From a candidate division WWE3 bacterium RAAC2_WWE3_1 (GTDB lineage: Bacteria > Patescibacteriota > WWE3 > UBA101185 > UBA10185): 64,000 nucleotides of DNA. Below, one piece after another: positions 4,042-55,098 of the stretch. Every line of letters begins with the position of its first letter. Position 1 is the first letter of the stretch. Made by a program: the position numbers and the translations under genes. Below the pieces are notes generated by a model that searched no databases, was not told where the DNA came from, and worked only from the letters and a program-made list of their open reading frames with translations. Where the stretch lies: contig CP006914.1 in the NCBI GenBank assembly GCA_000503835.1, positions 303,341 through 367,340 on the forward strand, given 5' to 3'.

Positions 4042-4064
4042 TTCTTGTGTTTGAGCGCGACTAA

Positions 4065-4138: not shown

Positions 4139-4194
4139 GCGTTTTTGTTGTCATAGCGCCACTTACACAAGCAAATTATTTCGCAATTAAGATA

Positions 4195-5446: not shown

Positions 5447-5497
5447 ATCGTCATAACCCTTACAGGGTACCCCCAATACATAGAAAGGAGACAGGTA

Positions 5498-5638: not shown

Positions 5639-5739
5639 GTTTTAAGGTCTCGTCGTTTTATAGTCAGGTTGAGTATGACTAAGGTGATGGCTACTTAAAC
5701 AGAGCAGTCATCACCTTTTTACCTAAGGAGGCAGTTTCA

Positions 5740-7348: not shown

Positions 7349-8110
7349 ATGCATTCAAAAAACGTTGAGGACGCTGTAACCACAATTAGGTACGAGGAAA
7401 AAGGTTTGCCGCCGGAAGGAGAACCCTCCGTCCCCTGGATTTTAAAAGAACTAGATCCCGGCGCGATAGCAAGCAGGACACTGGTTAAATCCTTTAATTT
7501 AGCCAACGAAGATTTGATACACAATGTTCAAAGACACGAAGCGGAAAGAGGAAGATTATTTTCAGATATTTACGAGCAGATGTTAACGAAACACGGACTT
7601 TCACTCAAAGATTCAAAAGTTTTAGAAGTAGGGGCAGGCCCCGGAGCTGTGTGTTTAGGTTTTCAGGAAGTAGGCGCTAAAGTCGTTAGTTTAGACATTT
7701 GGGACGGTAGGGTTTTTTACAATGACGAGGTTCCTTTTGTAATCGGAGACGGTACCGCTTTACCATTTACCGACAATAGTTTTAATTACCTCTCTTTGAC
7801 TTCGGTGTTACACCACCTACCAATAGAGTATAGAAAAACAATGCTGGAAGAAGCACTAAGGGTTGCGGACACAGTACTTATTCAGGAAGATTGTCTCACA
7901 AGCCCTATTACCAATATTGCTATGAAATTAGTAGACGACGGGGTAAGCGGAGAAGTAGGTACGCATCAAGCTGAATCTCACATGACAAAGGAAGGCTGGC
8001 TTAAATATTTCGAAGATGCAGACTTAAAAGTGTTAGAGACCGTAGACTATCATCCCAAATGGTTGGGTGTGGGTATTGAAAAGGCATTTTTCGTAATATC
8101 CCGCTCTTGA
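7349..8110 (+). CDS. Class I SAM-dependent methyltransferase (Methyltransf_11-like)
   Basis: Motif I VLEVGAGPGAV, acidic-residue beta2 end (VVSLDIWD), motif II/III around VADTVLIQE. Confidence 0.65.
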   Translation: MHSKNVEDAVTTIRYEEKGLPPEGEPSVPWILKELDPGAIASRTLVKSFNLANEDLIHNVQRHEAERGRLFSDIYEQMLTKHGLSLKDSKVLEVGAGPGAVCLGFQEVGAKVVSLDIWDGRVFYNDEVPFVIGDGTALPFTDNSFNYLSLTSVLHHLPIEYRKTMLEEALRVADTVLIQEDCLTSPITNIAMKLVDDGVSGEVGTHQAESHMTKEGWLKYFEDADLKVLETVDYHPKWLGVGIEKAFFVISRS

Positions 8111-8267
8111 ATTCTCCGCAATGTTGCGCTTAATCCGAAAATACCGGAACGTAGCTTTAACCTCTTTAAGAATTTTGTAAAAGAAAAAGCACGATGTTGG
8201 TAGGGGAGGATGCGATGGAGGGGAAGGTGGGGGTTTTGAGGGGGTTGCTTACACCTGAAGGTTGAGT

Positions 8268-8282
8268 GGGGGGGGGGGGGGG
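8268..8282. repeat. Homopolymeric G15 tract
   Basis: 15 consecutive G inside the right-hand repeat copy. The left copy has GGTGAGCCGAAAAGG at the equivalent position. Confidence 0.9.
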
Positions 8283-8350
8283 AGTAGAGAGCGTTTAGTG
8301 CTGATTTGAGCTGCTTCAGGTGCTATAATTTCTTGTGTTTATCCGACTAG

Positions 8351-8425
8351 TGGGGGATTGTCTAAAGCGTTAGGGCTGCGGGTTTTGGTCCCGCCTATTG
8401 GGGTTCGAATCCCTATCCCTAGCCA
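8351..8425 (+). pseudogene. Pseudo-tRNA-Gln (TTG): altered D-arm and 1-nt deletion in the 3' acceptor strand
   Basis: TGGGGGATTGTCTAAAGCGTTAGGGCTGCGGGTTTTGGTCCCGCCTATTGGGGTTCGAATCCCTATCCCTAGCCA. Anticodon arm and T-arm are identical to the 4065 copy. The acceptor 3' strand TCCCTAG cannot fully pair with TGGGGGA. Confidence 0.6.
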
Positions 8426-8493
8426 TTTATCAATTTCCTTTAATAGGGCTTGTAATTTGCCGTTACTATATATATATTTCCTTATTGGTAAGT

Positions 8494-15087: not shown

Positions 15088-15941
15088 CAAAAATGAGTGA
15101 TTTACAAACACTGCACTTTCCGAACTGGTGTCCCGGTTGCGGCGATCTGAATATTTGGGGTGCTTTCAAAAACGCGGCAGTTAAGGAAGGGTGGGACAGT
15201 TCCAATACCTCCATTGTTGCCGGAATCGGTTGTCACGGCCACATCGTTAACTTCGTTAAACTAAACTCATTTGAAGGCCTGCATGGAAGGGCTCTGCCCG
15301 TAGCGAGCGGAGTTAAAATGGTCAACAACCGTCTTAACACTTTTGTTTTTACAGGAGACGGGGATTGTTTCGGAGAGGGGGGAAATCATTTTATTCATAC
15401 CTGCAGAAGAAATCACGATCTTACGATTCTGATACACGACAACGCGTTATATTCTTTGACGACGGGGCAAACATCGCCTTTAACAGCTCACGGGTTTAAA
15501 ACAAAATCGACGCCGCAGGGAAATCCGGACGAGCCGTTCAACCCGTTAACATTGGCAATAATTTCAGGAGCTACGTTTGTGGCTCGCGCATATTCGGGGG
15601 ATATGCCGAAATTAGCAGAATTAATTATTGAGGCGAATAAACACAAGGGACTTGCGGTGATTGATATTCTTCAACCCTGCGTAACGTTCAATAAAGTTTG
15701 CACACACGGGTTCTATCAGGAAAACACGTACTACCTTGAAGAAAATTACGACCCTTCGGACAAAAATAAAGCTTTAGAGAGAGCCTCGGAGTTCGGTGAC
15801 AAAAAAATACCGCTCGGAATATTTTATAAAACGAACAGACCTTCTTATGAAGATCAAATCTTGCAAATCAAAGAAAAACCTCTGACAGAAATACCCGTGG
15901 AAAGATCCTCAGCGATAGAACTTTTCAAAAAATATACCTAA
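15084..15941 (+). CDS. 2-oxoacid:ferredoxin oxidoreductase beta subunit (TPP-binding)
   Basis: CPGCGD Cys motif, TPP-binding GDGD...N region. 4-nt overlap with the alpha subunit. Confidence 0.8.
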   Translation: MTKMSDLQTLHFPNWCPGCGDLNIWGAFKNAAVKEGWDSSNTSIVAGIGCHGHIVNFVKLNSFEGLHGRALPVASGVKMVNNRLNTFVFTGDGDCFGEGGNHFIHTCRRNHDLTILIHDNALYSLTTGQTSPLTAHGFKTKSTPQGNPDEPFNPLTLAIISGATFVARAYSGDMPKLAELIIEANKHKGLAVIDILQPCVTFNKVCTHGFYQENTYYLEENYDPSDKNKALERASEFGDKKIPLGIFYKTNRPSYEDQILQIKEKPLTEIPVERSSAIELFKKYT

Positions 15942-21073: not shown

Positions 21074-23524
21074 ATGAAAAACTACCGATTCCTCACAGAA
21101 GAAAAAGGACTATCAAACGCAGAGGTAACTCAAAGACAAAAACAATACGGCCTTAACATACTTCCCGAAAAAGCTCCCCCGGGTAAGTTTTACCTGTTTT
21201 TAGCACAGCTTAAAAGCCCGTTGGTATACGTTTTGCTCGCGTCCTCACTGGTTACATTTGCGCTTGGTGAAATCGCGAACGCTTTTATAATTCTCCTCGC
21301 GGTCATTATTAATACGGTATTGGGATTTATACAGGAGTACAAAACATCGAACGCCCTGGCCGCTTTAAAAAAATTTATCTCCGACGAAACAACCGTAATC
21401 CGTGACGGAAACCGGGTACTAATCGATTCTTCTCAAATCGTACCTGGCGACATTATAGTTTTGAGCCAGGGAGATAAAATTCCGGCAGACGGAGAAATAC
21501 TATCCTCTAACCGGCTGCATGTTAATGAGTCTATATTAACGGGAGAGAGCGCCGCAGTTGAAAAAAGTAATGACGACGGGCTTTTTATGGGAACCACCGT
21601 AGTTTCAGGACAAGCCGCTATCCAGATAGAAGCCACAGGCACTGCAACGAAGATGGGAAAAATCGCCGAGAAAATACAGGAAGAAAAAGAGGTTACTCCA
21701 CTTCAAAAACAATTAAAATCATTCAGCACCCAGCTTTTGTACGTAATAGGACTTCTCGTCGTTGTCGTATTTGTTGTCGGACTTATACATAAATTCAGCC
21801 TCGTAGAAATATTTACAACTTCAGTGGCCTTAGCCGTTTCAAGTATTCCCGAAGGCCTTTTAGTTTCATTAACAGTTGTACTTGCTGTAGGAATGCAAAA
21901 GATTTTAAAACGAAAAGGCCTGGTAAGAAAATTGGCGGCGGCCGAAACTTTGGGCGGTGTCACGGTTATTTGTGTGGATAAAACAGGGACTTTAACCGAG
22001 GGACATATGGAAGTCGTTGATTTCATAGGAAACGAGAAAGAATTAGCAGTTCAGTCTTTACTGGCAAACGATTTAGACGACCCGATTGTGATATCGGCAT
22101 ACGAATGGGGAAAGAAAATAATGGGAGATCCCGCACCGGGTCTTCCGAGAATTGACAGCATACCATTCTCATCCGAGGACCGCTTTTCTCTTTGTCTGAA
22201 TAAATGGAACGCTGAAAAAAACATAATATTTGTGAACGGCGCCCCTGAAATACTCCTTCGATGGACAACCTTATCCGATAAAGAAAAAGAAGAAATAGTC
22301 TTGTCCATAGATAATTTTACAAAACAAGGAAAACGGGTAATAGGATTTGCCAGAAAAGAAGTACCTATAGAAAAGGTTGCTTTAGACGCTTCGGACGCAA
22401 TGAGTGACTTATCCTGGGCAGGCTTGCTGGTGTTTTCCGACCCCGTGAGAATGGGAGTTAAGGAAGCCCTGGAACAAGCCAGAATTGCCGGAATAAAAAT
22501 AATGGTTATAACGGGAGATTACGCAAATACATCTGAGTTTGTTCTATCGGAACTGGAAGTAGCGGTATCAAAAGACGAGATAATGACCGGGGACCGACTT
22601 GCTGTACTTTCAGCTGAAGAATTGTCACACCGGGTAAAAAATATAAGACTATTCGCAAGAACAACACCGGATCAAAAACTTTTAATAGTGGGGGCTCTCA
22701 AAAACAACGGAGAAATCGTGGCTATGATAGGGGACGGTGTTAACGACGCACCGGCTTTGCACAAATCAGATATCGGAGTTGTTGTCGGAGAGGCTTCAGA
22801 CGTTGCAAAAGAATCTGCTGATCTCGTCTTACTCGATTCTAATTTTTCAACTATTATTGCCGCGGTAGAAGAGGGCAGAGTTATGTTTGAAAACATAAGG
22901 AAAATTATCCTTTATCTGTTATGCGATGCCTTCGGTGAAATAATCGTAGTCCTCGGTGGAATAATGCTGGGCGTCCCTTTGCCTCTTACAGCCGTTCAGA
23001 TACTTTGGATCAATCTGGTTTCCGACGGATTCCCCAATCTTGCACTGACAGTAGACCCGAAAAGAAAAGACATTATGTATGAAGTTCCGCGTCCGGCTAA
23101 GGAACTCCTCGTCAATACTAAAATGGTTATATTGATTTCATTTGTGAGCCTACTCGTGGGTCTTATAGCACTTGGTTCCTTCGTATACATCTATAATTCG
23201 ACGGGTGACGTAGTTTTAGCAAGATCATTTACATTTATAACGATCGGTCTGAACTCCCTGATTTATGTCTTTGCCGTAAGAGAACCCAAAAAACCCTTTT
23301 GGAACAATCACATGTTCAACAATAAGTACTTGGTTGCTGCTGTGATTGGAGGATTAGCACTTCAATTCCTTCCCTTTTCTACGGGCGCATCAAGACAGTT
23401 TTTCGGGTTGAGTGAACTCGGAATAAAACACTGGGTGCTCGCCCTGAATTTCTCACTTATAATGTTCTTCGTTATCGAAGTATTTAAGAAGGTGACCAAC
23501 CGCGGGGGTTTCAGCCGGTTATAA
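21074..23524 (+). CDS. P-type ATPase, P2-type cation (Ca2+/Mg2+-like) transporter
   Basis: PEGLLVSL (TM4 PEGL), ICVDKTGTLT phosphorylation motif, GDGVNDAPAL hinge. Confidence 0.85.
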   Translation: MKNYRFLTEEKGLSNAEVTQRQKQYGLNILPEKAPPGKFYLFLAQLKSPLVYVLLASSLVTFALGEIANAFIILLAVIINTVLGFIQEYKTSNALAALKKFISDETTVIRDGNRVLIDSSQIVPGDIIVLSQGDKIPADGEILSSNRLHVNESILTGESAAVEKSNDDGLFMGTTVVSGQAAIQIEATGTATKMGKIAEKIQEEKEVTPLQKQLKSFSTQLLYVIGLLVVVVFVVGLIHKFSLVEIFTTSVALAVSSIPEGLLVSLTVVLAVGMQKILKRKGLVRKLAAAETLGGVTVICVDKTGTLTEGHMEVVDFIGNEKELAVQSLLANDLDDPIVISAYEWGKKIMGDPAPGLPRIDSIPFSSEDRFSLCLNKWNAEKNIIFVNGAPEILLRWTTLSDKEKEEIVLSIDNFTKQGKRVIGFARKEVPIEKVALDASDAMSDLSWAGLLVFSDPVRMGVKEALEQARIAGIKIMVITGDYANTSEFVLSELEVAVSKDEIMTGDRLAVLSAEELSHRVKNIRLFARTTPDQKLLIVGALKNNGEIVAMIGDGVNDAPALHKSDIGVVVGEASDVAKESADLVLLDSNFSTIIAAVEEGRVMFENIRKIILYLLCDAFGEIIVVLGGIMLGVPLPLTAVQILWINLVSDGFPNLALTVDPKRKDIMYEVPRPAKELLVNTKMVILISFVSLLVGLIALGSFVYIYNSTGDVVLARSFTFITIGLNSLIYVFAVREPKKPFWNNHMFNNKYLVAAVIGGLALQFLPFSTGASRQFFGLSELGIKHWVLALNFSLIMFFVIEVFKKVTNRGGFSRL

Positions 23525-23530
23525 AACACA

Positions 23531-24388
23531 ATGCTTACACCAATTCTTGCTACAATATCCTCCTTCGTAGATCAGCTTGGCTCGGCGGTAATTAAGAAAA
23601 CCGAAAATGATGTTTACTATCCCGCATCAATATGGGGAGCGGCACTTGTCTCAACGGCAAGCGGCTCGGTGATAATATTCGCCTATGTTCTGTTAAAAAG
23701 TAATTTATATCTGGACCCGGCTAAAATATGGTTGTTTTTTCCCAGAATAGGCCTTGAGATCTTTCAAATCTACGTAACATTTACAGCCCTAAAGATATCC
23801 GATTTAAGCAGTTACAATTTCCTGAGAGTGTTTTCAATAATATTCGTTATTATTTTCGAATTCCTTTTTCTGAATACATTACTGACTCCCCTAAAATACC
23901 TGGGAATATTGACCGTGTTCCTTTCAATTCTTATCGTTTTCCGACACGGGGTAAAAAATATTGCGGGGTGGGGGTTTTTGCTGGCATCTGCGGTTAACGG
24001 TGGTTTGCTGATGGCCTTGACTAAATATCAGTTCTCTTTCAACGATGCCTATTTAAATGAAGCGATAGTCCGTATATTTCTCATTGTGCTGCTTGCCGGT
24101 TTCGTTCTGTTTAATTTTAAAGGGACGCCCGTCAATCCTGCTCCCCCGTTCCTAAAACATAATAAAACTCTTTGGTTGCTTATTCCGATTAGAGCGGTGG
24201 TAGGAATTTTAAACCTGGTAGCTTTAAACTTGGGGGCTGCAGCCGTCTACACCACGGCCGACAGAGCAGGCTCTGTTTTATCCGGAGTGGCGCTGGGACA
24301 TTCGATGTTCAATGAAAAGTCTTTAGTGGAAAAATTGTTTATAGCCTCAGGGATTACCACCGGGCTGGTACTTCTTATTTTAGGCTAA
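23531..24388 (+). CDS. Polytopic membrane protein (DMT-like)
   Basis: ~9-10 hydrophobic helices. No catalytic motif. Confidence 0.4.
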   Translation: MLTPILATISSFVDQLGSAVIKKTENDVYYPASIWGAALVSTASGSVIIFAYVLLKSNLYLDPAKIWLFFPRIGLEIFQIYVTFTALKISDLSSYNFLRVFSIIFVIIFEFLFLNTLLTPLKYLGILTVFLSILIVFRHGVKNIAGWGFLLASAVNGGLLMALTKYQFSFNDAYLNEAIVRIFLIVLLAGFVLFNFKGTPVNPAPPFLKHNKTLWLLIPIRAVVGILNLVALNLGAAAVYTTADRAGSVLSGVALGHSMFNEKSLVEKLFIASGITTGLVLLILG

Positions 24389-24432
24389 AAAGACAACTTA
24401 AGCCGCATCACAATGCTTTTCCATCAACTGTT

Positions 24433-26661
24433 TCAGACCGATAAAAGCTCTTTCTCGGACCTTTTCAGCAGTACAGCATTTGTAGCAACAATTATAGAAG
24501 AAGCTGACATCAGCAGCGCAGAAAATTCCGGACGTAAAGTAATTCCATAGCTGGTATATAGAACACCTGCAGCGACAGGGATTGCCAATACATTGTATAC
24601 GCTGGCCCAGACCAGATTTTGCTTCATTTTTCTGACCGTAGCTTTGCTGAGTCTGATCGCATTTAATATATCCCACGGGTCCGACCTCATCAGAACGATG
24701 TCGGCGGTTTCAATAGCTACGTCTGTTCCGGCACCGATGGCAATACCTATGTCGGCCTGAGCTAAAGCGGGAGCATCGTTTACACCGTCGCCCACCATTG
24801 CCACAAACTTTCCTTCGCTTTGCAATTGTTTTACATATTTAGCTTTATCTTCGGGCAGTACCTCCGAAAAAACCCGGTCAATTCCGAGGTTTTTGCCGAT
24901 AGTTTCGGCAGTTTTTTTGTTATCCCCCGTTATCATGGCTACTTCCAGTCCCAAGTCTTTCATACTTTTTATAGCTCTCCCGGCTGTCGGTTTTACGGTA
25001 TCCGCTGCCGCGGCTATCCCCGCCACGTTACCGTCTATCGCGAGTATCATCAGTGTCTTACCTTCGTTCAAAAGTCTGTTTATATCCGCCTCAAGAGGAG
25101 AAATATCGACATTTCTGTCGCGCATTAACTTTATAGTCCCGACAAGTATACTTTTACCTTCCACTACAGCCTCTACGCCGTGACCGGAAATATTATTAAA
25201 GTTTCGGATATCTTCAGGAATAGCAATGCTTCTTTTTTTCACCTCTTCCAGTACGGCGAGGCTTAAAGGATGGCCTGATTTCGCTTCGGCGGCACTTGTC
25301 AGTCTCAGTACTTCGTTTTCCTCGTTGCCTTTATTGGCAACAACGTCCGTAATTACCGGTTTTCCTTCCGTGAGCGTACCTGTTTTATCCAGTACAACCA
25401 CCTGAATTTTCGAGGCTTGTTCCAGGGTAGTTGCGTTCTTGATAAGAATATTGTGCTTGGCTCCGATACCGGTTCCGACGGCGACTGCTGTCGGTGTCGC
25501 AAGCCCCAATGCATCGGGGCAGGCTATTACTATAGCGGACACGGCAAAGGTTAATGCAAAAAGCAGAGTCTGTCCTGCCGCAAAATACCAATAACCGAAG
25601 GTCACAACTCCTGCTCCTACAGCTAACAGCACTAAATATTGGGCGGCCTTGTCGGCTATTCTCTGACCGGGAGCCTTCGAATTTTGCGCGACCTCGACCA
25701 GTTTTACTATCTGAGCAAGAGCCGTGTCACTTCCTACTTTGGTGGCTTTAAATTGAAGGGAGCCCGATTGGTTGATTGAACCTCCTATTACGGTGTCACC
25801 GATCTTTTTTGACACCGGAATCGACTCTCCCGTGACGAGAGATTCGTCGATCGCTGTCTCGCCCTGTATAACTTCACCATCGACAGGCACCTTGTCCCCG
25901 GGTTTAAGGATAATTACGTCCCCGACGGTTACTTCTGCTGTCGGCACCAATATCTCTTTTCCGTCCCTTATGACCCTCGCCTGCGGGGGAACCAAATCAA
26001 ATAAAGCCCGTAATGCCTCCGAGGTGCCTCTTCGGGATTTCATTTCCATCCAGTGACCAAAAAGCACAAAAGTGACCAAAAGAGCCGCGGCTTCAAAGAA
26101 AGTCTCTCCGCCGACAAACAGGGTAATAACAACACTAAAGAGGTAAGCGGCAAAAACACCGGTGGCGATCAGAACCATCATGTTAAGGGTTTTGCTTTTT
26201 AAAGCTTGGTAGGCACCGATTGGAAAAATAGAACCAAACTTAAACACCACGGGGGTTGTTAAAAGAAATAATAACCAGTTGTGGGGTATAGGAGTCGGCA
26301 ATCTTATTCCTAAAAAGTCAGTAAAAACCGGGGAATAAAGGAAAATGGGAATAGAAAAAATCAGTGACCACAGGAAACGGTTACGCATGTCTTTTTCCAT
26401 AAAGGCCGCCATACTAGGATCGGTCATTGCTTTTTCGTGGTCTTCGTGGCTCATTTTGCTCATGTCGTGCCCGTTGTTGCCCGCGCCGCCCGTGTCATGC
26501 TTCCCATGGCTATTGTTCATGTCATGGCCGTTATGTTCCATACCGGCCATCCCGCGACCATCTTGTTTCTGCATGTTGCTGTGGTCGTGCCCTGCCCCCA
26601 AATGCTCCGCCTCCGAATGCTCTGTCCCTGAATGCTTCATTTTAGAATGATCCATGTTCAT
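24433..26661 (-). CDS. P1B-type heavy-metal ATPase with His/Met-rich N-terminal extension and atypical CPD transmembrane motif
   Basis: DKTGTLT, GDGVNDAPAL and a ~90-aa N-terminus rich in His/Met (HSEAEH, GHDMNNSHGKHD). The TM6 motif reads IACPDALG; codons TGC CCC GAT were verified on the DNA. Confidence 0.8.
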   Translation of the reverse strand: MNMDHSKMKHSGTEHSEAEHLGAGHDHSNMQKQDGRGMAGMEHNGHDMNNSHGKHDTGGAGNNGHDMSKMSHEDHEKAMTDPSMAAFMEKDMRNRFLWSLIFSIPIFLYSPVFTDFLGIRLPTPIPHNWLLFLLTTPVVFKFGSIFPIGAYQALKSKTLNMMVLIATGVFAAYLFSVVITLFVGGETFFEAAALLVTFVLFGHWMEMKSRRGTSEALRALFDLVPPQARVIRDGKEILVPTAEVTVGDVIILKPGDKVPVDGEVIQGETAIDESLVTGESIPVSKKIGDTVIGGSINQSGSLQFKATKVGSDTALAQIVKLVEVAQNSKAPGQRIADKAAQYLVLLAVGAGVVTFGYWYFAAGQTLLFALTFAVSAIVIACPDALGLATPTAVAVGTGIGAKHNILIKNATTLEQASKIQVVVLDKTGTLTEGKPVITDVVANKGNEENEVLRLTSAAEAKSGHPLSLAVLEEVKKRSIAIPEDIRNFNNISGHGVEAVVEGKSILVGTIKLMRDRNVDISPLEADINRLLNEGKTLMILAIDGNVAGIAAAADTVKPTAGRAIKSMKDLGLEVAMITGDNKKTAETIGKNLGIDRVFSEVLPEDKAKYVKQLQSEGKFVAMVGDGVNDAPALAQADIGIAIGAGTDVAIETADIVLMRSDPWDILNAIRLSKATVRKMKQNLVWASVYNVLAIPVAAGVLYTSYGITLRPEFSALLMSASSIIVATNAVLLKRSEKELLSV

Positions 26662-26688
26662 TTAGTCTCCTTATGATAGAAATAAACC

Positions 26689-26701
26689 TAATATTGTATA
26701 T
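26689..26701. promoter_or_regulatory. Inverted repeat TGTATATAATACA overlapping a TATAAT box in the divergent intergenic region of the metal genes
   Basis: 5-bp arms TGTAT/ATACA around a central ATA. Lies between divergently transcribed metal-resistance genes and is a candidate operator/-10. Confidence 0.3.
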
Positions 26702-26810
26702 AATACATTGATAGCAACAAATATGATACACTTAACGGTCGTGATCCGTGTATTATTTACTGCCTAACCCATCCGAAGATGTCACAGGCACTTTAAGTAT
26801 AAGGTAGATA

Positions 26811-28253
26811 ATGTCTAAAAAAATCAGAACAATCGAACATTCCGCCCGTAAAAGCGTACACAAAAGTAAAATAGTGCCCATCAAAGGCATGCATTGCCGT
26901 TCCTGTGAAATCTTAATCGAAGATGAACTCCTAAAGGTACCCGGGGTTCATAAAGTTAACGTGAGCGAGAAAAAAGGAACCGCACACATATTCTATGACG
27001 GGGAAGTGGCCGACGAACATATTGAAAAAGCTGTGTACGACTGCGGTTATAGTATAGGTAAGGACTCTAAAAGCTGGGTCTCAAAAAACCCCGTAGATTA
27101 CGAGGATTTGATCAAAGCCGGTATTGCTCTGGCTTTTGTCTACTTTATTGCAAAAGGATTAGGATTTTTTAATATTTCTTTTGGCTCGACGAACGATCTT
27201 ACGAGTCTTTCCGTTGTCTTTTTGGTGGGACTCACCGCGGGTCTTTCTACATGCATGGCCTTGGTGGGAGGATTGGTTCTGGGAGTTTCCGCAAGATTCT
27301 CGGAGAAACACCCTTACGCAAATTCATTGCAAAAGTTTAAACCTCATCTTGTATTCAACGCGGGAAGAATCTTTTTCTTTGTGGTACTCGGGGGTTTAAT
27401 CGGATATTTCGGCTCTTTTTTACAGCTGGGACCTTCTTCAGTGGGTTTTTTAACTATTCTCGTAGGAATTGTGATGTTGCTGCTTGGCCTGCAAACAATC
27501 GGGATATTTCCATGGTTCGAAAGAATAAAGTTTACTTTGCCGAAAGGTCTTTATAAGCTGGCCGGGATCAATACTCAGAAAAAGGAAAAATACAGTAACG
27601 GGAGCTCTTTTGTTCTCGGCGGTCTGACTTTCTTTCTACCCTGCGGATTTACGCAGGCTATGCAACTTTACGCAATCTCCAGCGGCAGTATACTAACAGG
27701 AGCTTTAACGATGGGCGTTTTTGCGTTGGGTACAGCTCCCGGGCTTTTGAGCGTCGGCGGACTGACCGCCTTGATAAAAGGCGCGTTCGCCAAACCGTTC
27801 TTCAAGTTTGTCGGTCTGATGGTTATGGGCTTGTCCGTATTTAATATTTCAAACGGACTAAATCTTGCGGGAGTGACTCTTCCTGTATTTGGCGCCGTAA
27901 AAACTGTTTCCGCCACTCCGACGCCTGCCATATACGATCCTAACGTAACGCTGGAAAACGGTGTGCAGGTCGTGAGGATGGCACAAAATTACAACGGATA
28001 CTCACCACGGGCGTTTACCATACAAAAAGGAGTGCCTGTAAAATGGGTTATAACGTCCACAAATTCAAACTCTTGTGCGGCAAGTATTTTTTCTGCACAG
28101 CTTGGAATTAGACAATATCTGAAGCTAGGTGAAAATATTATTGAATTTACACCCACGGATACAGGAAGTATTAAATTTTCCTGCAGTATGGGAATGTACG
28201 TCGGCTCGTTTAACGTGGTTGACGCATCGGTCGCCGGTTCAAAGAACCGCTAG
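26811..28253 (+). CDS. HMA-domain membrane protein (DsbD_2/TauE-like core) with C-terminal cupredoxin-like periplasmic domain
   Basis: N-terminal GMHCRSCE heavy-metal-associated motif, ~8 TM helices, then a C-terminal ~120-aa soluble domain ending FSCSMGMYVGSF (Cys/Met metal site). Confidence 0.55.
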   Translation: MSKKIRTIEHSARKSVHKSKIVPIKGMHCRSCEILIEDELLKVPGVHKVNVSEKKGTAHIFYDGEVADEHIEKAVYDCGYSIGKDSKSWVSKNPVDYEDLIKAGIALAFVYFIAKGLGFFNISFGSTNDLTSLSVVFLVGLTAGLSTCMALVGGLVLGVSARFSEKHPYANSLQKFKPHLVFNAGRIFFFVVLGGLIGYFGSFLQLGPSSVGFLTILVGIVMLLLGLQTIGIFPWFERIKFTLPKGLYKLAGINTQKKEKYSNGSSFVLGGLTFFLPCGFTQAMQLYAISSGSILTGALTMGVFALGTAPGLLSVGGLTALIKGAFAKPFFKFVGLMVMGLSVFNISNGLNLAGVTLPVFGAVKTVSATPTPAIYDPNVTLENGVQVVRMAQNYNGYSPRAFTIQKGVPVKWVITSTNSNSCAASIFSAQLGIRQYLKLGENIIEFTPTDTGSIKFSCSMGMYVGSFNVVDASVAGSKNR

Positions 28254-28275
28254 TGCCGGAGATGGAAAAATAATT

Positions 28276-28491
28276 ATGAACTATAAAATACAGCTGGAAA
28301 ATTTGCACTGCAATTCCTGCAAGAAAATTGCAGAAAAAAGACTCGGAAAAATAGAAGGAGTTACGTCCGTTGAAGTAACTATGGAAGATCAGACTGCGCT
28401 TGTACATACCGAACAACCTTTAAGTCTGTTGCAGACAGAGGACGCTCTGAAGGATACCGACTATAAAGTTACGGCTTTTACCGAGATCTAA
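28276..28491 (+). CDS. copZ: Copper chaperone CopZ-like (single HMA domain)
   Basis: Start at ATG 28276 ([17 protein letters not shown]), giving 71 aa. The ORF-track start at 28129 includes untranslatable upstream sequence. Confidence 0.7.
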
Positions 28492-28492
28492 T

Positions 28493-31231
28493 ATGCAAAA
28501 GTTATTAAAACTAAAAATTGAAGGAATGCATTGCGCTTCCTGCGAAACTCTAATAAGGGATGAGCTGAGTGAACTCAAAGGCGTAAGCGACATAAAAGTT
28601 GACGCAAACCTGGGGGAGGGAAGTGTGTTGCTTGAGACCGACACCAATAGCATAGCTGACGTTTTGTCTGCGGTAGAAAAAGCCGGTTACAAAGCTGTGG
28701 CGGATGAGTCCGCCCGGGAAGCTGTGAAAAGTGATTCCGCTGTAATAGAACCGTCCGGCATACAACCCGCAACCGCTGCCACCAACCTGACATCAACTGC
28801 GGAACGTCCGAAAGGAATAAACAGAATTTCACTGGACATAGAAGGCATGCACTGTTCCTCATGCGCCGCGATAATCGAGAAATCCTTAAGCAAGGTCGAT
28901 GGAGTTAAAGATGCTAATGTGAATTTTGCCGCCGAGAAAGCAAGCGTGGTGATGGACGAATCGGTGGCTGATAAAAATTTACTATTAAAAGCCGTAGAAA
29001 AAGCCGGTTATAAGGCTTCAGTGTCCCAACAAAACCAGTCGGACAGTGATAAAGAAAAACAACAAAATCATATAAAAGTTATGTTCGACAAATTTCTGAT
29101 TAGCCTTGCTCTGAGTATCCCCATGATCTATTTCATGATGTTCGATTTTTTTGTAAATTTTCCCGGACGTGCGATGTTGTTGCCTTATGTTGGAATAATA
29201 TCTTTCATACTTACAACCCCGGTTCAGTTCATCATAGGAAAAGGTTTCTATAAAGGAATGTTCTCAGCCCTCAGAATGAAGACTTTTAACATGGACAGTT
29301 TGATAGCTATCGGTACGTCGGTCGCATATTTTTATAGTGTCATTAACTTCACAGCTTACTATCTGGCGACAAAATCCATAATAGGTGTGGGTGGAGTAAA
29401 GATTCCCGAACTATACTTTGAAACCGCTGCCTTTTTGATAACGTTTGTTATCTTAGGTAAATGGCTTGAGGCAAAAGCTAAAGGAAGGACGTCGGACGCC
29501 ATAAAAAAACTTATGGGTCTGCAGGCCAAAACGGCCAGAGTTGTCCGAAACGGGTTCACGGAGGATATTCCTACGGGTCAAGTCGTGGTTGGTGATATTG
29601 TTGTGGTCAGGCCGGGAGAAAAAGTCCCTGTTGACGGTGAAGTGGTAAAAGGCTCGTCTGCCGTCGATGAATCGATGATTACGGGAGAAAGCCTGCCCGT
29701 CGAAAAACGTGAGGGTGATACGGTCGTAGGAGGAACAATAAATAAAACGGGGAGTTTTGAATTTAAGGCTACGCGTGTCGGTTCCGAAACTACACTTTCT
29801 CAAATAATACGTTTAGTTGAGGATGCGCAGGGGTCGAAAGCACCAATTCAGGCAGTAGCCGATAAAATTTCGGCCGTTTTCGTTCCGACGGTTCTTATAC
29901 TGGCCGTTGTAACATTTGTAGTCTGGTACTTCATGCTCGATGCGACCTTATCTTTTTCCCTAATGGCGTTCACATCAGTAATTGTTATCGCGTGTCCGTG
30001 CGCACTGGGACTCGCCACACCTACATCAATTATGGTCGGAACAGGCAAGGGGGCTGAGAACGGCATACTCGTTAAGGGAGGGGAGCCTCTGGAATCTGCC
30101 GTTAAGATAAAAATTATTGTTTTCGATAAGACCGGAACGATCACAAAAGGTAAACCCGAGGTAACCGACACAATAAGTTTTGATTCACTAAATGAAAGGG
30201 ACCTCTTACAAATCGCCGCAAGTCTGGAAAAACAATCGGAACATCCTCTAGCCGAGGCTATATATACCCACGCACAGGATGAAGGCCTAAGCTTTAGCGA
30301 GGTTTCAGCTTTTAAAGCTATTCCGGGGCACGGCGTTGAAGGAACGATAGCCGGCACGACCTACTATTTCGGCAACAGAAAACTAATTAATGACGTACTA
30401 AACCTCCCCACATCTCTGATAGAACCGCAACTTTCCGGGCTGGAAGAACAGGGCAAGACTGCGATGATTCTTGCCACAAAAGGCTCGGTTCTCGGAACAG
30501 TGGCGGTGGCCGATACTGTTAAAGACACATCAAAAGAAGCTGTGGACAGATTAAAAAAGCTCGGTATCGAGGTTTACATGATAACCGGCGATAACGAACG
30601 AACCGCCAGGGCAATTGCGGCACAGGTAGGAATCATAAATGTTCTCGCTGAAGTTTTGCCCGAAGATAAAGCGAATGAAGTTAAAAAACTACAGATGACC
30701 GGGAAAAAAGTAGCGATGGTAGGTGATGGAATTAACGACGCCCCGGCACTTGCCCAGGCAAATTTAGGAATAGCCATGGGTTCAGGTACGGACGTTGCCA
30801 TGGAAGCTGGGGGAATAGTAATAATAAGAAACGATCTGAGGGATGTTGTTAATGCGATCGACCTGTCTAAAGCAACCGTAGGTAAAATTAAACAGAACAT
30901 GTTCTTTGCCCTGTTCTACAATGTGATAGGAATTCCGATAGCCGCACGTGTATTTATCAGCCTAGGATTAGTTCTAAAACCCGAGCTTGCGGGTCTTGCA
31001 ATGGCATTAAGTTCCATCTCGGTCGTTACTAACTCATTGACCCTGCGCGGATACAAACCCGGAAAACGAAACTGGATCTCGACACTAGCTCCGATAATAA
31101 TGATTGCCCTATTTACGGGGCTATTCTTTGAATTTGCAAAGTTCAGTTCTTCTATGGCGAAACCCGCCGAGGGCGCGAACGGCATGAAGCAGTTAGACGT
31201 ACCGTCCGCCGAAATGCAGAGCGGCCGCTAG
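28493..31231 (+). CDS. copA: Cu(I)-translocating P1B-1 ATPase CopA with two N-terminal HMA domains
   Basis: GMHCASCE and [13 protein letters not shown] motif ([12 protein letters not shown]), [17 protein letters not shown]. Confidence 0.9.
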
Positions 31232-41685: not shown

Positions 41686-42162
41686 ATGGAACCCCAAAAA
41701 CCAAAAAATCAAGGATTTCCGTATTTACCACTCTTATTAATTTTAGGTGGAGTAGGGATTTATTTCCTGCTTAACAGACCCTCAACGAAAAATCCTGTAA
41801 CAGAAAACACATCTACTTCGCAGGTCAGACCGGTAATCGAAGAAGAAGAACCCGAACCAAGTGCAAACCAAGTGAACCCGGTGCAGAACGAAGTAAGAGC
41901 AACAGTTGAAGGCAGTCCATTTAAATTCTCGCCAAACACAATATCTGCGAAAGTCGGCGACAAAATTATAGTTACGTTCAAAAACATGGAAGGAACCCAT
42001 GATTTCGTCATCGACGAATTTAACGTTGCAACAAAAATGACCAAGACAGGAGAAACCGACACAGTCGAATTCATCGCGGACAAAGCAGGGGTGTTCGAGT
42101 ATTACTGCTCGGTAGGCGAACACAGAAAAATGGGAATGGTCGGCACACTAACTGTAGAATAA
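41686..42162 (+). CDS. Membrane-anchored cupredoxin (type-1 copper protein, plastocyanin/azurin-like)
   Basis: N-terminal TM helix. Copper ligand pattern GTHDF ... YCSVGEHRKMGM (His, Cys, His, Met). Confidence 0.65.
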   Translation: MEPQKPKNQGFPYLPLLLILGGVGIYFLLNRPSTKNPVTENTSTSQVRPVIEEEEPEPSANQVNPVQNEVRATVEGSPFKFSPNTISAKVGDKIIVTFKNMEGTHDFVIDEFNVATKMTKTGETDTVEFIADKAGVFEYYCSVGEHRKMGMVGTLTVE

Positions 42163-42169
42163 TGTACAG

Positions 42170-42838
42170 ATGAACAAAGAGGTCAGAAGGTTCGTATATC
42201 TTGAGGCTATGTTGCTCTGGGCGTATGCATACCTGGGGCTTTGGCCGTTCGACTCTCTTCCTCAGCCGTCGAGATATGCCTTCCTGGCCGTAATATTTCT
42301 ATATTCCACCCTTATGGTCAGTCCCCTCACCATAGTTTTTCCTAACATACCCTATAAATTGACGTTTTTAAGAGCCAGAAAGGCCTTGGGCATCTCCTCG
42401 TTCTTTTTCGCTCTTACCCATGCCCTGACAGCGTTTAGGGATAGCCTGGGAGGTTTCCAGGGAATTGTCTTGTTTAGCTTAAGAGAGCTCCTGCCATATA
42501 TTATAGGAGCTTCCGCACTTCTGATTTTGACCGCGATGGCAGCAACCTCTCCGCCTTCTATGGTGAATCGGCTGGGAAGATACTGGAAGCGACTTCATAG
42601 ATTTGTGTACCTTGCCGGCGTATTGATACTGGTCCACGTAGCTATGGTTCCTAAGTCTATAAAACTACCGATTGTTTTAAATTATCTTATTTTTGCAATG
42701 GTGGGATTTCTAATCGTGTTAGAACTTATAAGATTCAACAGATTTCTAAGCATAAAATATAAGTTTCTTGAAAATAAACGGTTTTGGCCTCTGCTCTCAT
42801 TCGCAATCCTTTACCTAATTTATATTTTGTCGTATTAA
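42170..42838 (+). CDS. Ferric-reductase-like / YedZ (MsrQ)-like di-heme-b transmembrane protein
   Basis: 6 TM helices with His pairs in the helices (FFFALTHALTAF, LILVHVAMV). Confidence 0.45.
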   Translation: MNKEVRRFVYLEAMLLWAYAYLGLWPFDSLPQPSRYAFLAVIFLYSTLMVSPLTIVFPNIPYKLTFLRARKALGISSFFFALTHALTAFRDSLGGFQGIVLFSLRELLPYIIGASALLILTAMAATSPPSMVNRLGRYWKRLHRFVYLAGVLILVHVAMVPKSIKLPIVLNYLIFAMVGFLIVLELIRFNRFLSIKYKFLENKRFWPLLSFAILYLIYILSY

Positions 42839-51270: not shown

Positions 51271-51648
51271 GTGGACGAAAATCAAGTCATAGAACCGACA
51301 AATAACGGTGCTCAGCCGGAAAATACAACTGCGCCGGAAGGTACGCCGGCCGATAACTCAAAAATAATGGCTATAGTGGCCTATTTTATATTTTTCCTTC
51401 CTCTCCTTACCGAATATAAAGACAACGACTTTGTTAAATATCATGTTAAGCAATCGATTATGATCCTGTTAGTGGGAGTAGGAATAGGAGTGATATCATC
51501 TATACCCTTCATAGGGTGGATAGTAGGAATGCTGGCATGGATGGCTCTCGTGGTCCTGTGGGTCATGGGAATACTTAACGCTGCTTCCGAAAAGAAACAA
51601 CCCCTGCCTTTAATAGGCAAGTATGCGGAAGAGCTTCTAAAGTTTTAA
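51271..51648 (+). CDS. DUF4870-family membrane protein
   Basis: GTG start after GGGAGGTGA. IVAYFIFFLPLL...KYHVKQSI pattern typical of DUF4870. Confidence 0.45.
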   Translation: MDENQVIEPTNNGAQPENTTAPEGTPADNSKIMAIVAYFIFFLPLLTEYKDNDFVKYHVKQSIMILLVGVGIGVISSIPFIGWIVGMLAWMALVVLWVMGILNAASEKKQPLPLIGKYAEELLKF

Positions 51649-53376
51649 ATGCTGGTATAAGGCTCCCTGTGTGAAGCCGATAGCCTCGTAGTATCCGCGC
51701 GTTCCTATTGAGGAAATTACTGAAAGCCTCTTAAAACCTGCCCCGCGGGATATATCTGAGGCTTTCTTTATTAATTCTTTTCCCAAACCTACGTGCTGGG
51801 CCCTGCCTTCTTCTCCCGTGCCTACCACAACACTCCCTCCGTAAACATGTATTTCCCTTATCACTGCAGAACCCGATATCTCCTCTACCTTCGTAGGTCT
51901 TTCGGGCAAAGAAAGTCTGAGAAAAGCGGCAAGCTCATCATCCTTCGTCACGAATTCCAGGAAATATTCCTTAGTACCGGCAGTCAGATAAGTCGTTTCT
52001 TTATAAATCAGATCTTCCCTGTCGATCTTTTTGTCTCTAATCTCCCTGGAACGTATCTCCTTTAATTTTGTCCTGTTCTTCTCGAGTTCGGCCTCAGCTA
52101 TTTGCCTGAAATTGGTTTTTTTGTTTCCGGCTACAATGTCCAACCCCGAAATATCGCGCACAACACGGGTAACGCGGCAATATCGGGGAACCGTCGGAAG
52201 AATGGTCTTAAAAATGTGCAAAAGTTCGTTCTCCGTGTAAGGTTTCCAACTGCCTGTTCCGTAGTGCTCCATAAGTTCAGTGCCCTCTACCAAAGAGCAA
52301 GGGTAGATCTTCAGCTCGTCAGGTCTGAATTTTCTATCACCGAATAATTTTGTGAAATCCCTTATGTCAGACGCCGGATCGGAACCGTACAAGTTAGGCA
52401 TCCAATGCGCGTGTATCTTGAAACCGGCTTCTCTTAATAACGAAAAGGCTTCTGCGGTTCTTGCCGCGGTATGTCCTCTCTTGTTTAGCTTCAGCACCCT
52501 GTCGTTCAGACTCTGAACACCTATCTGTACTTTTGTGGCACCCAGACGCCTCATTCTCACTATCTCGTCTTTTGTTATCTCGTCGGGCCGTGTCTCGATC
52601 ACTAATCCAGTACATTTACATAAGGCGGCAACGTTCTTTGCGTGGGAGGCGAACAGTTCTTCCCACGTGGAATCTTCACCGGCCAATTTTTTGTCATTCC
52701 TGGCCAGACCTACAACAGCATTGTACGTCCCGGTTAGGTTCACAAGCTTCTTCTCGTCATACGGAAGCTCGGTCTTAACAGTTAAGTAGGAAGAACCGGT
52801 TCCGGGCTTGAAGTTGTTCAACGCGTCAAAACATCTTTTGATAAACCACAGCTGATAAGCCTCGGGGTAAGAGGTCCATGTCCCTCCCAAAACAATTAGC
52901 TCTATTTTGCTGACCGGATGCCCTGTTTTTTCGTACGCAACAAGTCTGTTATACGTTTGGTAATACGGGTCAAATTTATTATCGTGTGCCCTCTGCGCTC
53001 CCGGCTCACTCGATAAATAACTTTTCGGCATACGTACATCACTCGGGCAAAAAATACATTTGCCGGGACACGGATACGGCTTAGTAAGAACAGTTATGGG
53101 TGTTACCCCGGACATTGTTCTTATCTTTTTCGTTTTTATATTGTCCAGGAACCGGTCCTCTTCTTTACCCGTCAGAACAAGCTTCCCGCTTCCTTTCAAT
53201 CTCTTATATTCTTCCAAAAGGGTCGTTTTAGAGTATGTATCGTCCAGACCGCGTGAATTACTAAACAGGACCTTTAGCACTTCCTTTTCATCAGCGGCTT
53301 TGGAAATATCCCTTATCATTGGTATCATCTTAGAGCTGTCGGTTTTATTTATTTGCATATTATGAATCAGGCTCAA
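51637..53376 (-). CDS. elp3: Elp3-family radical-SAM / GNAT tRNA uridine(34) modification enzyme
   Basis: Radical-SAM CPGKCIFCPSD (Cx3Cx2C), Elp3 core and C-terminal GNAT (QHVGLGKELIKKA). 579 aa. The true start may be the internal Met at 53328. Confidence 0.8.
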   Translation of the reverse strand: MSLIHNMQINKTDSSKMIPMIRDISKAADEKEVLKVLFSNSRGLDDTYSKTTLLEEYKRLKGSGKLVLTGKEEDRFLDNIKTKKIRTMSGVTPITVLTKPYPCPGKCIFCPSDVRMPKSYLSSEPGAQRAHDNKFDPYYQTYNRLVAYEKTGHPVSKIELIVLGGTWTSYPEAYQLWFIKRCFDALNNFKPGTGSSYLTVKTELPYDEKKLVNLTGTYNAVVGLARNDKKLAGEDSTWEELFASHAKNVAALCKCTGLVIETRPDEITKDEIVRMRRLGATKVQIGVQSLNDRVLKLNKRGHTAARTAEAFSLLREAGFKIHAHWMPNLYGSDPASDIRDFTKLFGDRKFRPDELKIYPCSLVEGTELMEHYGTGSWKPYTENELLHIFKTILPTVPRYCRVTRVVRDISGLDIVAGNKKTNFRQIAEAELEKNRTKLKEIRSREIRDKKIDREDLIYKETTYLTAGTKEYFLEFVTKDDELAAFLRLSLPERPTKVEEISGSAVIREIHVYGGSVVVGTGEEGRAQHVGLGKELIKKASDISRGAGFKRLSVISSIGTRGYYEAIGFTQGALYQHLKL

Positions 53377-54045
53377 ATTAATGAGATTTTAAAACTCAAC
53401 GAAGCTTTCTACGAAAAAGCCCCGTTTTCGAATACCCGCCGAAGTTACTGGAAAGGATGGGGTAGGGCGGTTGAAGTTATATCCTTCAACGATCATTCTA
53501 CCATTAACGTGCTAGATGTAGGCTGCGGTAACGGCAGGTTTCTCAGATTTCTGAAAGAACGTCTGCCCGCGTCGGGTATAAAGTATACCGGGCTTGATAA
53601 TAACGGGGGGATGCTGAAGGAAGCGCGGAGTAATTACCCCGACGGAGACTTCTTAACTGCCGACATTCTTGAAAAAATTCCGGAGGGGAAGTTCGACCTG
53701 TCCGTGTGTTTTGGCGTTACTCATCATATACCCGGGAGAGAACTCAGAGATAGGTTTTTCCACAACATTGCCGAAACGGTTAAACCCGAAGGATATCTTA
53801 TAATAACCTTCTGGAATTTCGATACAAAAAAAGCTGTGGAAAAACTGGACGGCGCTAACGATTTTCTGCTGGGCTGGGACAATACGCCGGACCTCAAAAG
53901 ATACTGCCACCTATACAGCGACGAAGAAATGACCGATATAAAAAAGGGGTTGGCGGGAAAGGGATTTAGTTTGATATCTTCGTTTACGGAAGATGCTTCC
54001 AACATTTACTTTGTTTTTCGAAAAGTTGATACAATAAGGTCATGA
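53353..54045 (+). CDS. Trm9/ALKBH8-like class I SAM methyltransferase (candidate tRNA mcm5U methyltransferase)
   Basis: YEKAPFSNTRRSYWKGW resembles the Trm9 HFSxTRxKPWP block. Motif I VLDVGCGNGRFL. Divergent from elp3. Confidence 0.5.
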   Translation: MHIMNQAQINEILKLNEAFYEKAPFSNTRRSYWKGWGRAVEVISFNDHSTINVLDVGCGNGRFLRFLKERLPASGIKYTGLDNNGGMLKEARSNYPDGDFLTADILEKIPEGKFDLSVCFGVTHHIPGRELRDRFFHNIAETVKPEGYLIITFWNFDTKKAVEKLDGANDFLLGWDNTPDLKRYCHLYSDEEMTDIKKGLAGKGFSLISSFTEDASNIYFVFRKVDTIRS

Positions 54046-54452
54046 AAGATTGCATATTTTGCAAGATTGCAAAACGTGAGATTCCTTCCGGGATAATCTA
54101 CGAAGACGAAACTCATATTTCATTTTTAGATATAAACCCCACGACCGAGGGAATGACGGTCGTCATAACAAAAAAACATCATGACAGCGATCTTTATTCC
54201 AACGACACTGCGGTTATTTGCGCGATAATGAGTGCGGCCAAAAATACCGCCGGACTTTTAAAGGAAAGGCTCGGGTGTGAAAGAGTTTTGACCGCGGTAG
54301 AAGGACTGGAAATAGACCACCTTCACGTGAAACTTTATCCCTACTACGGGAATAGGTCGGCCGCAGACACTCTTACAGAACATATAGGTCAAAAGCCCAC
54401 AAAAGAATATTTGAAAAACTTAGCAGATAGGATAGGATTTTTGAAAATTTAA
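54042..54452 (+). CDS. HIT-family hydrolase
   Basis: N-terminal CIFCKI and DHLHVKL histidine-triad-like region. Confidence 0.5.
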   Translation: MKDCIFCKIAKREIPSGIIYEDETHISFLDINPTTEGMTVVITKKHHDSDLYSNDTAVICAIMSAAKNTAGLLKERLGCERVLTAVEGLEIDHLHVKLYPYYGNRSAADTLTEHIGQKPTKEYLKNLADRIGFLKI

Positions 54453-54465
54453 CCGCCAAAATATC

Positions 54466-55098
54466 ATGACCAAACACGAACTTATAAATAAACTAAAATC
54501 CGCAGGAGTACTTAGATCTTTCACCATTGAGCAGGCCTTGTTGGAAATAGACAGATCGGACTTTGTTCTCCCCGAAGACCGCGGCGACCCCTACGCGGAC
54601 GCGGCATTATCAATAGGGTACGGTCAGACAATTTCACAGCCTTTCACCGTGGTATTCATGCTGGAACTGCTCGATGTTAATCAGGGACATAAAATTCTTG
54701 ATATCGGCACCGGCTCAGGATGGCAGGCTTCGCTCCTTGCCTTTATGTCCGGAGAAAACGGACACGTCTACACTGTAGAAATAATTCCCCGGCTAAGTGA
54801 TTATGCTAAAGAAAACGTGAGCAAGTATCCTTTGATAAGCGGCAATCTTTCTTTTTATCAGGGAAATGCCAGGGCAGGTCTTCCGGAGGTATCAAAAGAG
54901 ATAGGCGGGTTCGACAAGATAGTCGCAGCAGCCGAGGTCAGAGAGGTACCGGAAGCGTGGAAGGAACAACTAAAGATCGGGGGGATAATGGTTTTTCCTA
55001 AAGATAACGGATTATATAAAATGACCAGAAATTCAGAAACAGACTTCGACACATTATTCTTTCCGGGATTTGCGTTCGTGCCTTTCGTGGAAGATTAA
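54466..55098 (+). CDS. pcm: Protein-L-isoaspartate O-methyltransferase
   Basis: GYGQTISQP, ILDIGTGSGWQAS. Confidence 0.8.
   Translation: MTKHELINKLKSAGVLRSFTIEQALLEIDRSDFVLPEDRGDPYADAALSIGYGQTISQPFTVVFMLELLDVNQGHKILDIGTGSGWQASLLAFMSGENGHVYTVEIIPRLSDYAKENVSKYPLISGNLSFYQGNARAGLPEVSKEIGGFDKIVAAAEVREVPEAWKEQLKIGGIMVFPKDNGLYKMTRNSETDFDTLFFPGFAFVPFVED

Follow-up and report, generated by a model that had tools for sequence, protein, structure and literature searches.

A divergent gene pair encoding Elp3 and a Trm9-type methyltransferase, a predicted wobble-uridine modification module, in a WWE3 bacterium and in other bacterial phyla

The stretch of DNA analysed here (hereafter the window; 64,000 nucleotides, positions 303,341 to 367,340 of contig CP006914.1) derives from RAAC2_WWE3_1, a groundwater bacterium of the candidate division WWE3 within the Candidate Phyla Radiation (CPR, Patescibacteria) that has a tiny genome, and carries two divergently oriented genes coding for the radical S-adenosylmethionine (SAM) protein Elp3 and for a class I SAM-dependent methyltransferase. 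A first-pass annotation of the window had read these genes as a linked Elp3-Trm9 pair for the modification of uridine 34 (U34), the wobble uridine of tRNA. Both open reading frames (ORFs) on which it relied are present in the ORF list, one of 579 amino acids (aa) at 51637-53376 on the minus strand and one of 230 aa at 53353-54045 on the plus strand, and each of the peptides it quoted was found in the translations at the positions given below. The true start of elp3 is likely to be the ATG at 53358, resulting in a protein of 573 aa (51637-53358, minus strand; the longest ORF begins at a TTG at 53376), and that of the methyltransferase gene is likely to be the ATG at 53362, resulting in 227 aa (53362-54045, plus strand); public gene calls for identical proteins, including those of loci L091 and L092, use the same starts. 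The two genes are indeed head to head, with a spacer of just 3 bp (53359-53361) between the start codons (CAT ATT ATG), as seen from the sequence and the gene calls. Predicted start-to-start distances were also taken for 41 pairs that adjoin each other in other genomes, and their median is 33 bp. A layout this tight (53356-53364) means that each promoter must lie within the coding sequence of the other gene, or else the transcripts are leaderless. As the start codons are placed almost back to back, the arrangement suggests one compact bidirectional control region and joint expression of both genes. Scanning of the region 51400-54600 for promoter and terminator consensus sequences gave sites no more numerous than in shuffled sequence, and no promoter is claimed; the same scan, whose regional count did not exceed the shuffled expectation, is the sole source of a terminator-like hairpin 16 bp past the elp3 stop codon (51603-51621, minus strand).

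The architecture ascribed to Elp3 in the first-pass annotation, a radical-SAM domain combined with a GNAT acetyltransferase domain, was borne out by Pfam, which recognized Radical_SAM (PF04055), Radical_SAM_C (PF16199) and Acetyltransf_1 (PF00583). With the NCBIfam model TIGR01211 the protein scored 458.2 bits, above the curated cut-off of 350. Its best solved relative is the Elp3 of Dehalococcoides mccartyi (DmcElp3, 5L7J; E = 7e-94), and the other solved Elp3 proteins matched were those of Methanocaldococcus infernus (MinElp3, 6IA8; E = 1.7e-92), yeast and mouse, with overall E-values from 7e-94 to 1e-73. In the translation, the radical-SAM Fe-S cluster motif CPGKCIFC (53047-53070, minus strand), one of the peptides quoted earlier, aligns to PCPGKCIYCP of DmcElp3, and its residues Cys103, Cys107 and Cys110 (numbered on the 579-aa ORF) are invariant across 25 CPR Elp3 sequences. 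The GNAT/KAT domain (residues 463-568, encoded at 51655-51990 on the minus strand) matched PF00583 with 22 bits, barely over the cut-off, and aligns to the KAT domain of DmcElp3. It contains the peptide EGRAQHVGLGK (51778-51810, minus strand) and within it the acetyl-CoA motif QHVGLGK, and the residues Q527, H528, G530, L531 and G532 of the general motif QHxGLG are likewise invariant in the 25 CPR sequences. On the basis of these matches, together with the public gene calls, the gene is predicted to encode a synthase of 5-carboxymethyluridine at the wobble position (cm5U34).

While the window Elp3 shares the radical-SAM, Radical_SAM_C and GNAT architecture and the motifs with both DmcElp3 and MinElp3, it differs from DmcElp3 in two respects, namely an additional N-terminal portion of about 76 aa (counted from the ATG at 53358) and an insertion of 54 aa within the radical-SAM domain (aa 194-247, encoded at 52636-52797 on the minus strand), where DmcElp3 has a 7-aa gap at the same place. 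The alignment to 5L7J is accordingly split into two parts, 83-193 and 248-574, flanking the insertion. An insertion of variable length (30-130 aa) is also found in 17 further bacterial Elp3 proteins from four phyla (among loci L011 to L088), between the sequences RCFDALNDF and ATWxEL..NE, and the motif (T)YN(Q)VV is conserved inside it. It is absent from the solved structures, as seen at residue level for DmcElp3 (5L7J) and deduced from the match coordinates for the others, and equally absent from a second, archaeal-like clade of bacterial Elp3 which is described below.

The partner gene (53362-54045, plus strand) encodes a Trm9-like class I SAM methyltransferase that is predicted to esterify cm5U34 to 5-methoxycarbonylmethyluridine (mcm5U34), as judged from PDB searches, hhalign, Foldseek and the linkage to Elp3. 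Pfam and NCBIfam recognize this protein by generic methyltransferase models only (the best NCBIfam matches being of the trans-aconitate, UbiG and BioC types, all far under their cut-offs), and the resemblance to Trm9 was therefore checked separately; neither collection holds a curated Trm9 model with which the protein could be scored. We used a profile from 15 close homologues of the window protein (A1), a profile from 52 Elp3-linked bacterial members of its family (A3), an alignment of 25 fungal Trm9 sequences (A4), which were collected using a Yarrowia Trm9 fragment taken from the alignments to 5cm2_Z, and an alignment of the window protein with four members of the second bacterial clade and three fungal Trm9 (A6).

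When the single sequence was searched against the PDB, Yarrowia Trm9 (5cm2_Z) was the top match with 51.7 bits, the runner-up having 46 bits, and the alignment extended into the C-terminal region beyond the Rossmann core. The first-pass annotation had likened the methyltransferase to Trm9/ALKBH8, and the profiles upheld this, as 5cm2_Z obtained 72.4 bits with A1 (next solved methyltransferase 52.2 bits) and 63.9 bits with A3 (next 52.4 bits). Comparison of the bacterial profile A3 with the fungal alignment A4 using hhalign resulted in a probability of 99.7% and an E-value of 1.6e-26 over 202 columns, nearly the full length of both. Similarly, the fungal Trm9 profile matched all 64 of 64 family ORFs, including the window member with 49.8 bits, the best ORF from outside the family reaching 22.6 bits, and it left the other class I methyltransferases of the window (7349-8110 and 54466-55098) unmatched. 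An AlphaFold2 model of the window protein was obtained with a predicted local distance difference test score (pLDDT) of 89.2 and a predicted template modelling score (pTM) of 0.88, and a Foldseek search of the PDB with this model placed Trm9 first (E = 9e-15, 23% identity). Judged by sequence and by modelled fold, the window methyltransferase is thus specifically Trm9-like, closer to Trm9 than to other methyltransferase families. The family as a whole is large, numbering 2,114 clusters (50% identity, E-values up to 1e-30).

The likeness extends to the active site. In a mutational study of Trm9 from Saccharomyces cerevisiae (ScTrm9), eight substitutions abolished or strongly cut the activity (Letoquart et al., PMC4678810): R29A with a loss of about 95%, D72A, which abolishes SAM binding, the inactive H116A, W145A and W168A, as well as R241A, Y243A and the strongly impaired N271A. 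The roles proposed there are that R29 and H116 hold the cm5U carboxylate, that N271 and H115 read the uracil, and that W145 stacks on it (PMC4678810). The eight positions correspond to R26, D79, H122, W151, W172, R180, C182 and N214 of the window protein, so that seven of these essential residues are retained and C182 is the exception. The N-terminal resemblance to Trm9/ALKBH8 noted in the first-pass annotation holds as well, as the columns of the motif FYEKAPFSNTRRSYWKGW (53407-53460, plus strand) align to fungal Trm9, with Tyr17, Arg26 and Trp30 corresponding to Y18, R29 and W33 of ScTrm9. Downstream on the same strand, the translation contains the SAM-binding motif I, VLDVGCGNGRF (53509-53541), the last of the peptides quoted earlier, and the acidic SAM ligand Asp79 (53596-53598; ScTrm9 D72), both invariant in A3 and A6, followed by the dyad His121-His122 (53722-53727; ScTrm9 H115 and H116), which does not vary among the 52 bacterial sequences or the fungal Trm9 proteins. 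Aligned columns further place Trp151 (53812-53814) and Trp172 (53875-53877) opposite W145 and W168, and the hairpin motif RYCH (53899-53910) such that Arg180 corresponds to R241 and Cys182 replaces Y243. The C-terminal D..N motif (53992-54003), in which Asp211 and Asn214 correspond to D270 and N271, was aligned by hhalign across a short insertion in the bacterial family; Asn214, the counterpart of the proposed uracil reader, is invariant in A3 and A6. Altogether, R26, D79, H122, W151, W172, R180 and N214, along with H121 and Y17, are invariant in A6 from the window protein through the fungi, and in A3 the residues essential in Trm9 are invariant or nearly so, except for W172 (below 90%).

A second type of bacterial Elp3-methyltransferase pair was recovered from locus L153 (metagenome contig Ga0265297_10004035, 3337-5624) and from loci L138, L152, L159, L169 and L175. 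The Elp3 of this type is archaeal-like and about 510-590 aa long, and that of L153 aligns to MinElp3 with 501 bits in one stretch, without the insertion. The neighbours of the pair at L153 are bacterial (RuvA, MurE, bacterial IF-2 and RbfA). Scored with the bacterial profile, the methyltransferases of this clade reach about 150 bits, and the fungal Trm9 profile gives them 80-110 bits; at the hairpin they keep RYYH or RYFH, often RYYH. On its sequences, this second clade, which also stands beside Elp3, bridges the window family and eukaryotic Trm9.

In order to see how widely the two genes are linked, loci were collected from either side of the pair. From the Elp3 side, one genome per species was scanned for relatives of the CPR Elp3, and the best 80 of more than 600 matching stretches were taken; all of these 80 are from bacterial metagenome-assembled genomes (MAGs), belonging to Patescibacteria (WWE3, Saccharibacteria, Pace- and Woesebacteria), Chloroflexota, Acidobacteriota (including Ca. 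Multivorans), Myxococcota/'Deltaproteobacteria', Spirochaetaceae and others. Five of the 26 negatives lacked upstream DNA, leaving 75 informative loci, and in 54 of these the methyltransferase gene is located divergently upstream of elp3 (family scores 79-376 bits). The positive loci span Patescibacteria, Chloroflexota, Acidobacteriota, Myxococcota and Spirochaetaceae, and among the Patescibacteria every locus with upstream DNA (13 of 13) carries the divergent methyltransferase gene. From the other side, 80 metagenome loci were found with the methyltransferase profile, 63 of them informative, and Elp3 is located beside the methyltransferase in 57, being adjacent and divergent in 52 of those. 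The synteny in other Elp3-containing bacteria that the first-pass annotation called for is therefore present in both directions, and it is at this level of gene linkage only that a functional dependence of the methyltransferase on the Elp3 product is seen. The pair is not a speciality of reduced genomes, since its frequency is just as high in Chloroflexota, Acidobacteriota and Myxococcota represented by chromosome-scale contigs of 2-5 Mb. No third conserved partner was found: apart from the pair, no neighbour family was common to more than nine loci upon clustering of the neighbouring ORFs after filtering (the unfiltered clustering was swamped by shadow ORFs in GC-rich loci), and HIT, cyclophilin and DUF4870 proteins adjoin the pair only in eight loci of the WWE3/Saccharibacteria type. 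A correlation between Elp3 and methyltransferase distances (Mantel r 0.84) was given no weight as evidence, as it is expected of any two genes sharing a species tree.

Some individual loci have additional features. In L037, from an Aggregatilineales MAG, the Trm9-like ORF (4791-6512, minus strand) continues into a TrmB domain (tRNA m7G46 methyltransferase, PF02390), which may be a true fusion or a frameshift; its value as a fusion pointing to a tRNA substrate was weighed and rejected, as the C-terminal motif is lost at the junction and a frameshift artefact is equally likely. A TrmB-like gene lies about 0.9 kb downstream of the methyltransferase gene in L017 (999-1994, minus strand). In L001, a 237-aa ORF without a significant family match (5295-6008, plus strand) is situated between elp3 and a 37%-identical relative of the methyltransferase, on the strand of the latter.

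From these gene structures, homologies and linkages, which were observed directly, we infer both enzyme activities and the tRNA substrates, and consider that the locus probably constitutes a two-gene module for tRNA wobble uridine, in which Elp3 would make cm5U34 and the methyltransferase would esterify it to mcm5U34. As a member of its family, Elp3 would use its radical-SAM domain and the acetyl-CoA bound by its GNAT domain to put a carboxymethyl group on C5 of U34, a reaction for which archaeal Elp3 and the eukaryotic Elongator provide the precedent, both having been shown to make cm5U34 (PMC7663514). The Trm9-type enzyme would then methylate the carboxylate of cm5U34 with SAM, as suggested by its homology, its active-site residues and its linkage to Elp3, just as Trm9-Trm112 makes mcm5U in yeast and Haloferax (PMC6144793). 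By analogy with Trm9, Arg26 and His122 would position the carboxyl group, Asn214 and His121 would read the uracil, and Trp151 would stack on it. The module appears to be self-contained, no other Elongator subunit, Trm112 or third gene being conserved beside the pair.

Several observations weigh against this assignment. Where Trm9 has the tyrosine of RYYH, the window protein has RYCH and most of its clade has Cys or Val, and ScTrm9 Y243A retains only about 10% activity (PMC4678810). Twenty-one of the 75 Elp3 loci have no methyltransferase neighbour, and six of the 63 methyltransferase loci have no Elp3. The margin of Trm9 over other Rossmann-fold methyltransferases in the Foldseek search was small (9e-15 as compared with 8e-13 for METTL6), as is expected from the likeness of these folds to one another. 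Furthermore, DmcElp3, the sole bacterial Elp3 studied in vitro, is very weakly active (PMC7663514), every characterized Trm9 needs Trm112, and one review assigns cm5U and mcm5U to archaea and eukaryotes only (PMC7694415).

The methyltransferase could act on the Elp3 product and yet give a wobble modification other than mcm5U, one not yet catalogued, for instance by methylating another atom of an xcm5U derivative, by acting only after 2-thiolation, or by acting on a different Elp3-dependent side chain. Such an outcome would fit the replacement of Y243 by Cys and the 5-7 residues inserted ahead of the uracil-reading Asn, and also the insertion of 30-130 aa that sets the radical-SAM domain of the window-type Elp3 clade apart from the solved Elp3 proteins; moreover, cm5U-related species of unassigned identity are present in Haloferax (PMC6144793). 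We nevertheless regard it as unlikely, because the proposed carboxylate and uracil holders (R26, H121, H122, R180, N214 and W151) do not vary across A6, the fungal Trm9 proteins included, and because the second bacterial clade retains the Tyr and is linked to Elp3 all the same.

A further alternative would be that bacterial Elp3 and its partner have been repurposed for another RNA, another tRNA position or a protein instead of tRNA position 34. The very weak activity of DmcElp3 and the clade-specific insertion in the window-type Elp3 could be taken in this sense, as could the statement that xcm5U34 has no direct evidence in any bacterium (PMC7663514). As the window Elp3 has about 50% identity to the archaeal and Dehalococcoides Elp3 proteins with all catalytic motifs kept, and as the partner keeps the counterpart of the uracil-reading residue proposed for Trm9, we consider such repurposing very improbable. 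The reading of the partner as a generic small-molecule or protein methyltransferase, adjacent to Elp3 through shared regulation or chance, is disfavoured and has hardly any likelihood left, for although the domain databases see only generic models and P0013 and the six metagenome loci mentioned above lack Elp3 nearby, the linkage holds in both directions across several phyla while all other neighbours vary, the motifs specific to Trm9, at the N and C termini, are not part of the generic Rossmann core, and Trm9 is the top solved relative by sequence as well as by fold.

With Trm9 of S. cerevisiae, the Trm9-Trm112 complex of Yarrowia lipolytica (5CM2) and the ALKBH8 methyltransferase domain, the window protein shares the class I SAM methyltransferase fold, a similar size and the tie to Elp3, and the motifs common to all are the N-terminal Y...FSxTR...W, LDxGCGNG, the HH dyad, the two Trp residues, the R-Y-x-H hairpin and the C-terminal D/N. 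It differs from Trm9 in that the identity is only about 23-27%, in having Cys for Tyr243 and xxWxGW in place of KPWP, in the short insertion before the Asn and in lacking the long loop of ScTrm9; at the level of the locus, the host is bacterial, the gene is head to head with elp3, and no Trm112 was found nearby. The archaeal systems, that is Haloferax HVO_1032 with Trm112 and the Sulfolobus cluster, are comparable by description in that a prokaryotic Elp3 without other Elongator subunits occurs with a Trm9 homologue. A bacterial SAM methyltransferase that esterifies the carboxyl group of a U34 side chain is CmoM of Escherichia coli, which converts uridine 5-oxyacetic acid (cmo5U) to its methyl ester (mcmo5U). 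CmoM, in contrast to the window methyltransferase, depends on CmoA and CmoB as the upstream pathway and modifies a different side chain, and is an analogue and not a member of the same family; it was not among the top solved relatives of the window protein in the PDB searches with the single sequence, A1 or A3.

The requirement of Trm9 for Trm112 deserves separate consideration. A jackhmmer search with a single E. coli YcaR seed, of limited sensitivity and leaving room for a copy elsewhere in the genome, detected no Trm112/YcaR-like ORF of at least 35 aa either in the window (64 kb) or at any of 89 loci. As no such ORF was found there, the methyltransferase may act alone, independently of Trm112. 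Likewise, phmmer searches with E. coli MnmG, MnmE and MnmA, the first two of which the first-pass annotation had named as the usual bacterial route to modified U34, did not find mnmE, mnmG or mnmA in the window, which covers about 7% of a genome of roughly 878 kb, or in loci L001-L089. A broader proposal, which we put forward tentatively and hold to be somewhat doubtful, is that a self-sufficient, Trm112-independent module installs mcm5U-type modifications in at least four to five bacterial phyla and replaces MnmE/MnmG in streamlined CPR genomes.

The elp3 and trm9 genes are known to cluster in Sulfolobus (PMC6144793), archaeal Trm9 is reported only in Sulfolobales and Halobacteriales and is Trm112-dependent (PMC6144793, PMC5372719), bacterial Elp3 was described in a review as confined to Dehalococcoides (PMC7663514), and another review finds nothing similar to the Trm112-dependent methyltransferases, including Trm9, among bacterial genes (PMC5372719). 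In the literature searched, no paper joined Elp3 with CPR or other bacterial phyla and none dealt with a bacterial Trm9. The pathway itself is already known, and the bacterial Elp3-Trm9-type pair is not described in that literature. Contrary to the reviews, Elp3 is common in Patescibacteria, Chloroflexota, Acidobacteriota, Myxococcota and others, usually together with a Trm9-type methyltransferase. Automated annotation names Elp3 correctly and labels its partner only as 'class I SAM-dependent methyltransferase', to which annotation pipelines could give a specific name if the assignment is true. In that case many bacteria would decode split codon boxes via Elongator-type wobble chemistry, the function of bacterial Elp3 would become directly testable, and a minimal system of Elp3 and Trm9, without Elongator subunits and perhaps without Trm112, would be available for mechanistic work.

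Outside the conserved core, the methyltransferase gene is followed by a HIT-family gene (54042-54452, plus strand; ORF list and Pfam HIT) whose ATG shares bases with the stop codon of the methyltransferase gene (ATGA), and the two are probably co-transcribed. A gene for a protein-L-isoaspartate O-methyltransferase comes after the HIT-family gene (window 54042-55098 for both).

Elsewhere in the window, a region at 10482-15941 encodes a 955-aa fusion of an ADP-forming acetyl-CoA synthetase (CoA_binding, Succ_CoA_lig and ATP-grasp_5) with an FAD/NAD-binding reductase module, directly followed by subunits of a 2-oxoacid:ferredoxin oxidoreductase; acetyl-CoA is also the co-substrate of Elp3. Positions 3842-4142 and 8124-8428 are direct repeats of each other (about 300 bp, 78-96% identity) and include tRNA-Gln(UUG), the second copy of which (8351-8424) is damaged on the acceptor 3' side and obtained just 31 bits in Rfam. 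The segment of 4.28 kb between the repeats, which encodes an alpha/beta hydrolase, unknown ORFs, a DUF6624 protein and a Methyltransf_11 protein, resembles an island integrated at tRNA-Gln. Finally, three P-type ATPases (one with HMA domains), an HMA-DsbD_2-cupredoxin fusion and a plastocyanin-like protein are encoded at 21074-31231 and 41686-42838, and the GC content is 0.45-0.47 at 24-28 kb and about 0.40-0.43 elsewhere in the window; this cluster is possibly an acquired island for the handling of copper or other metals.

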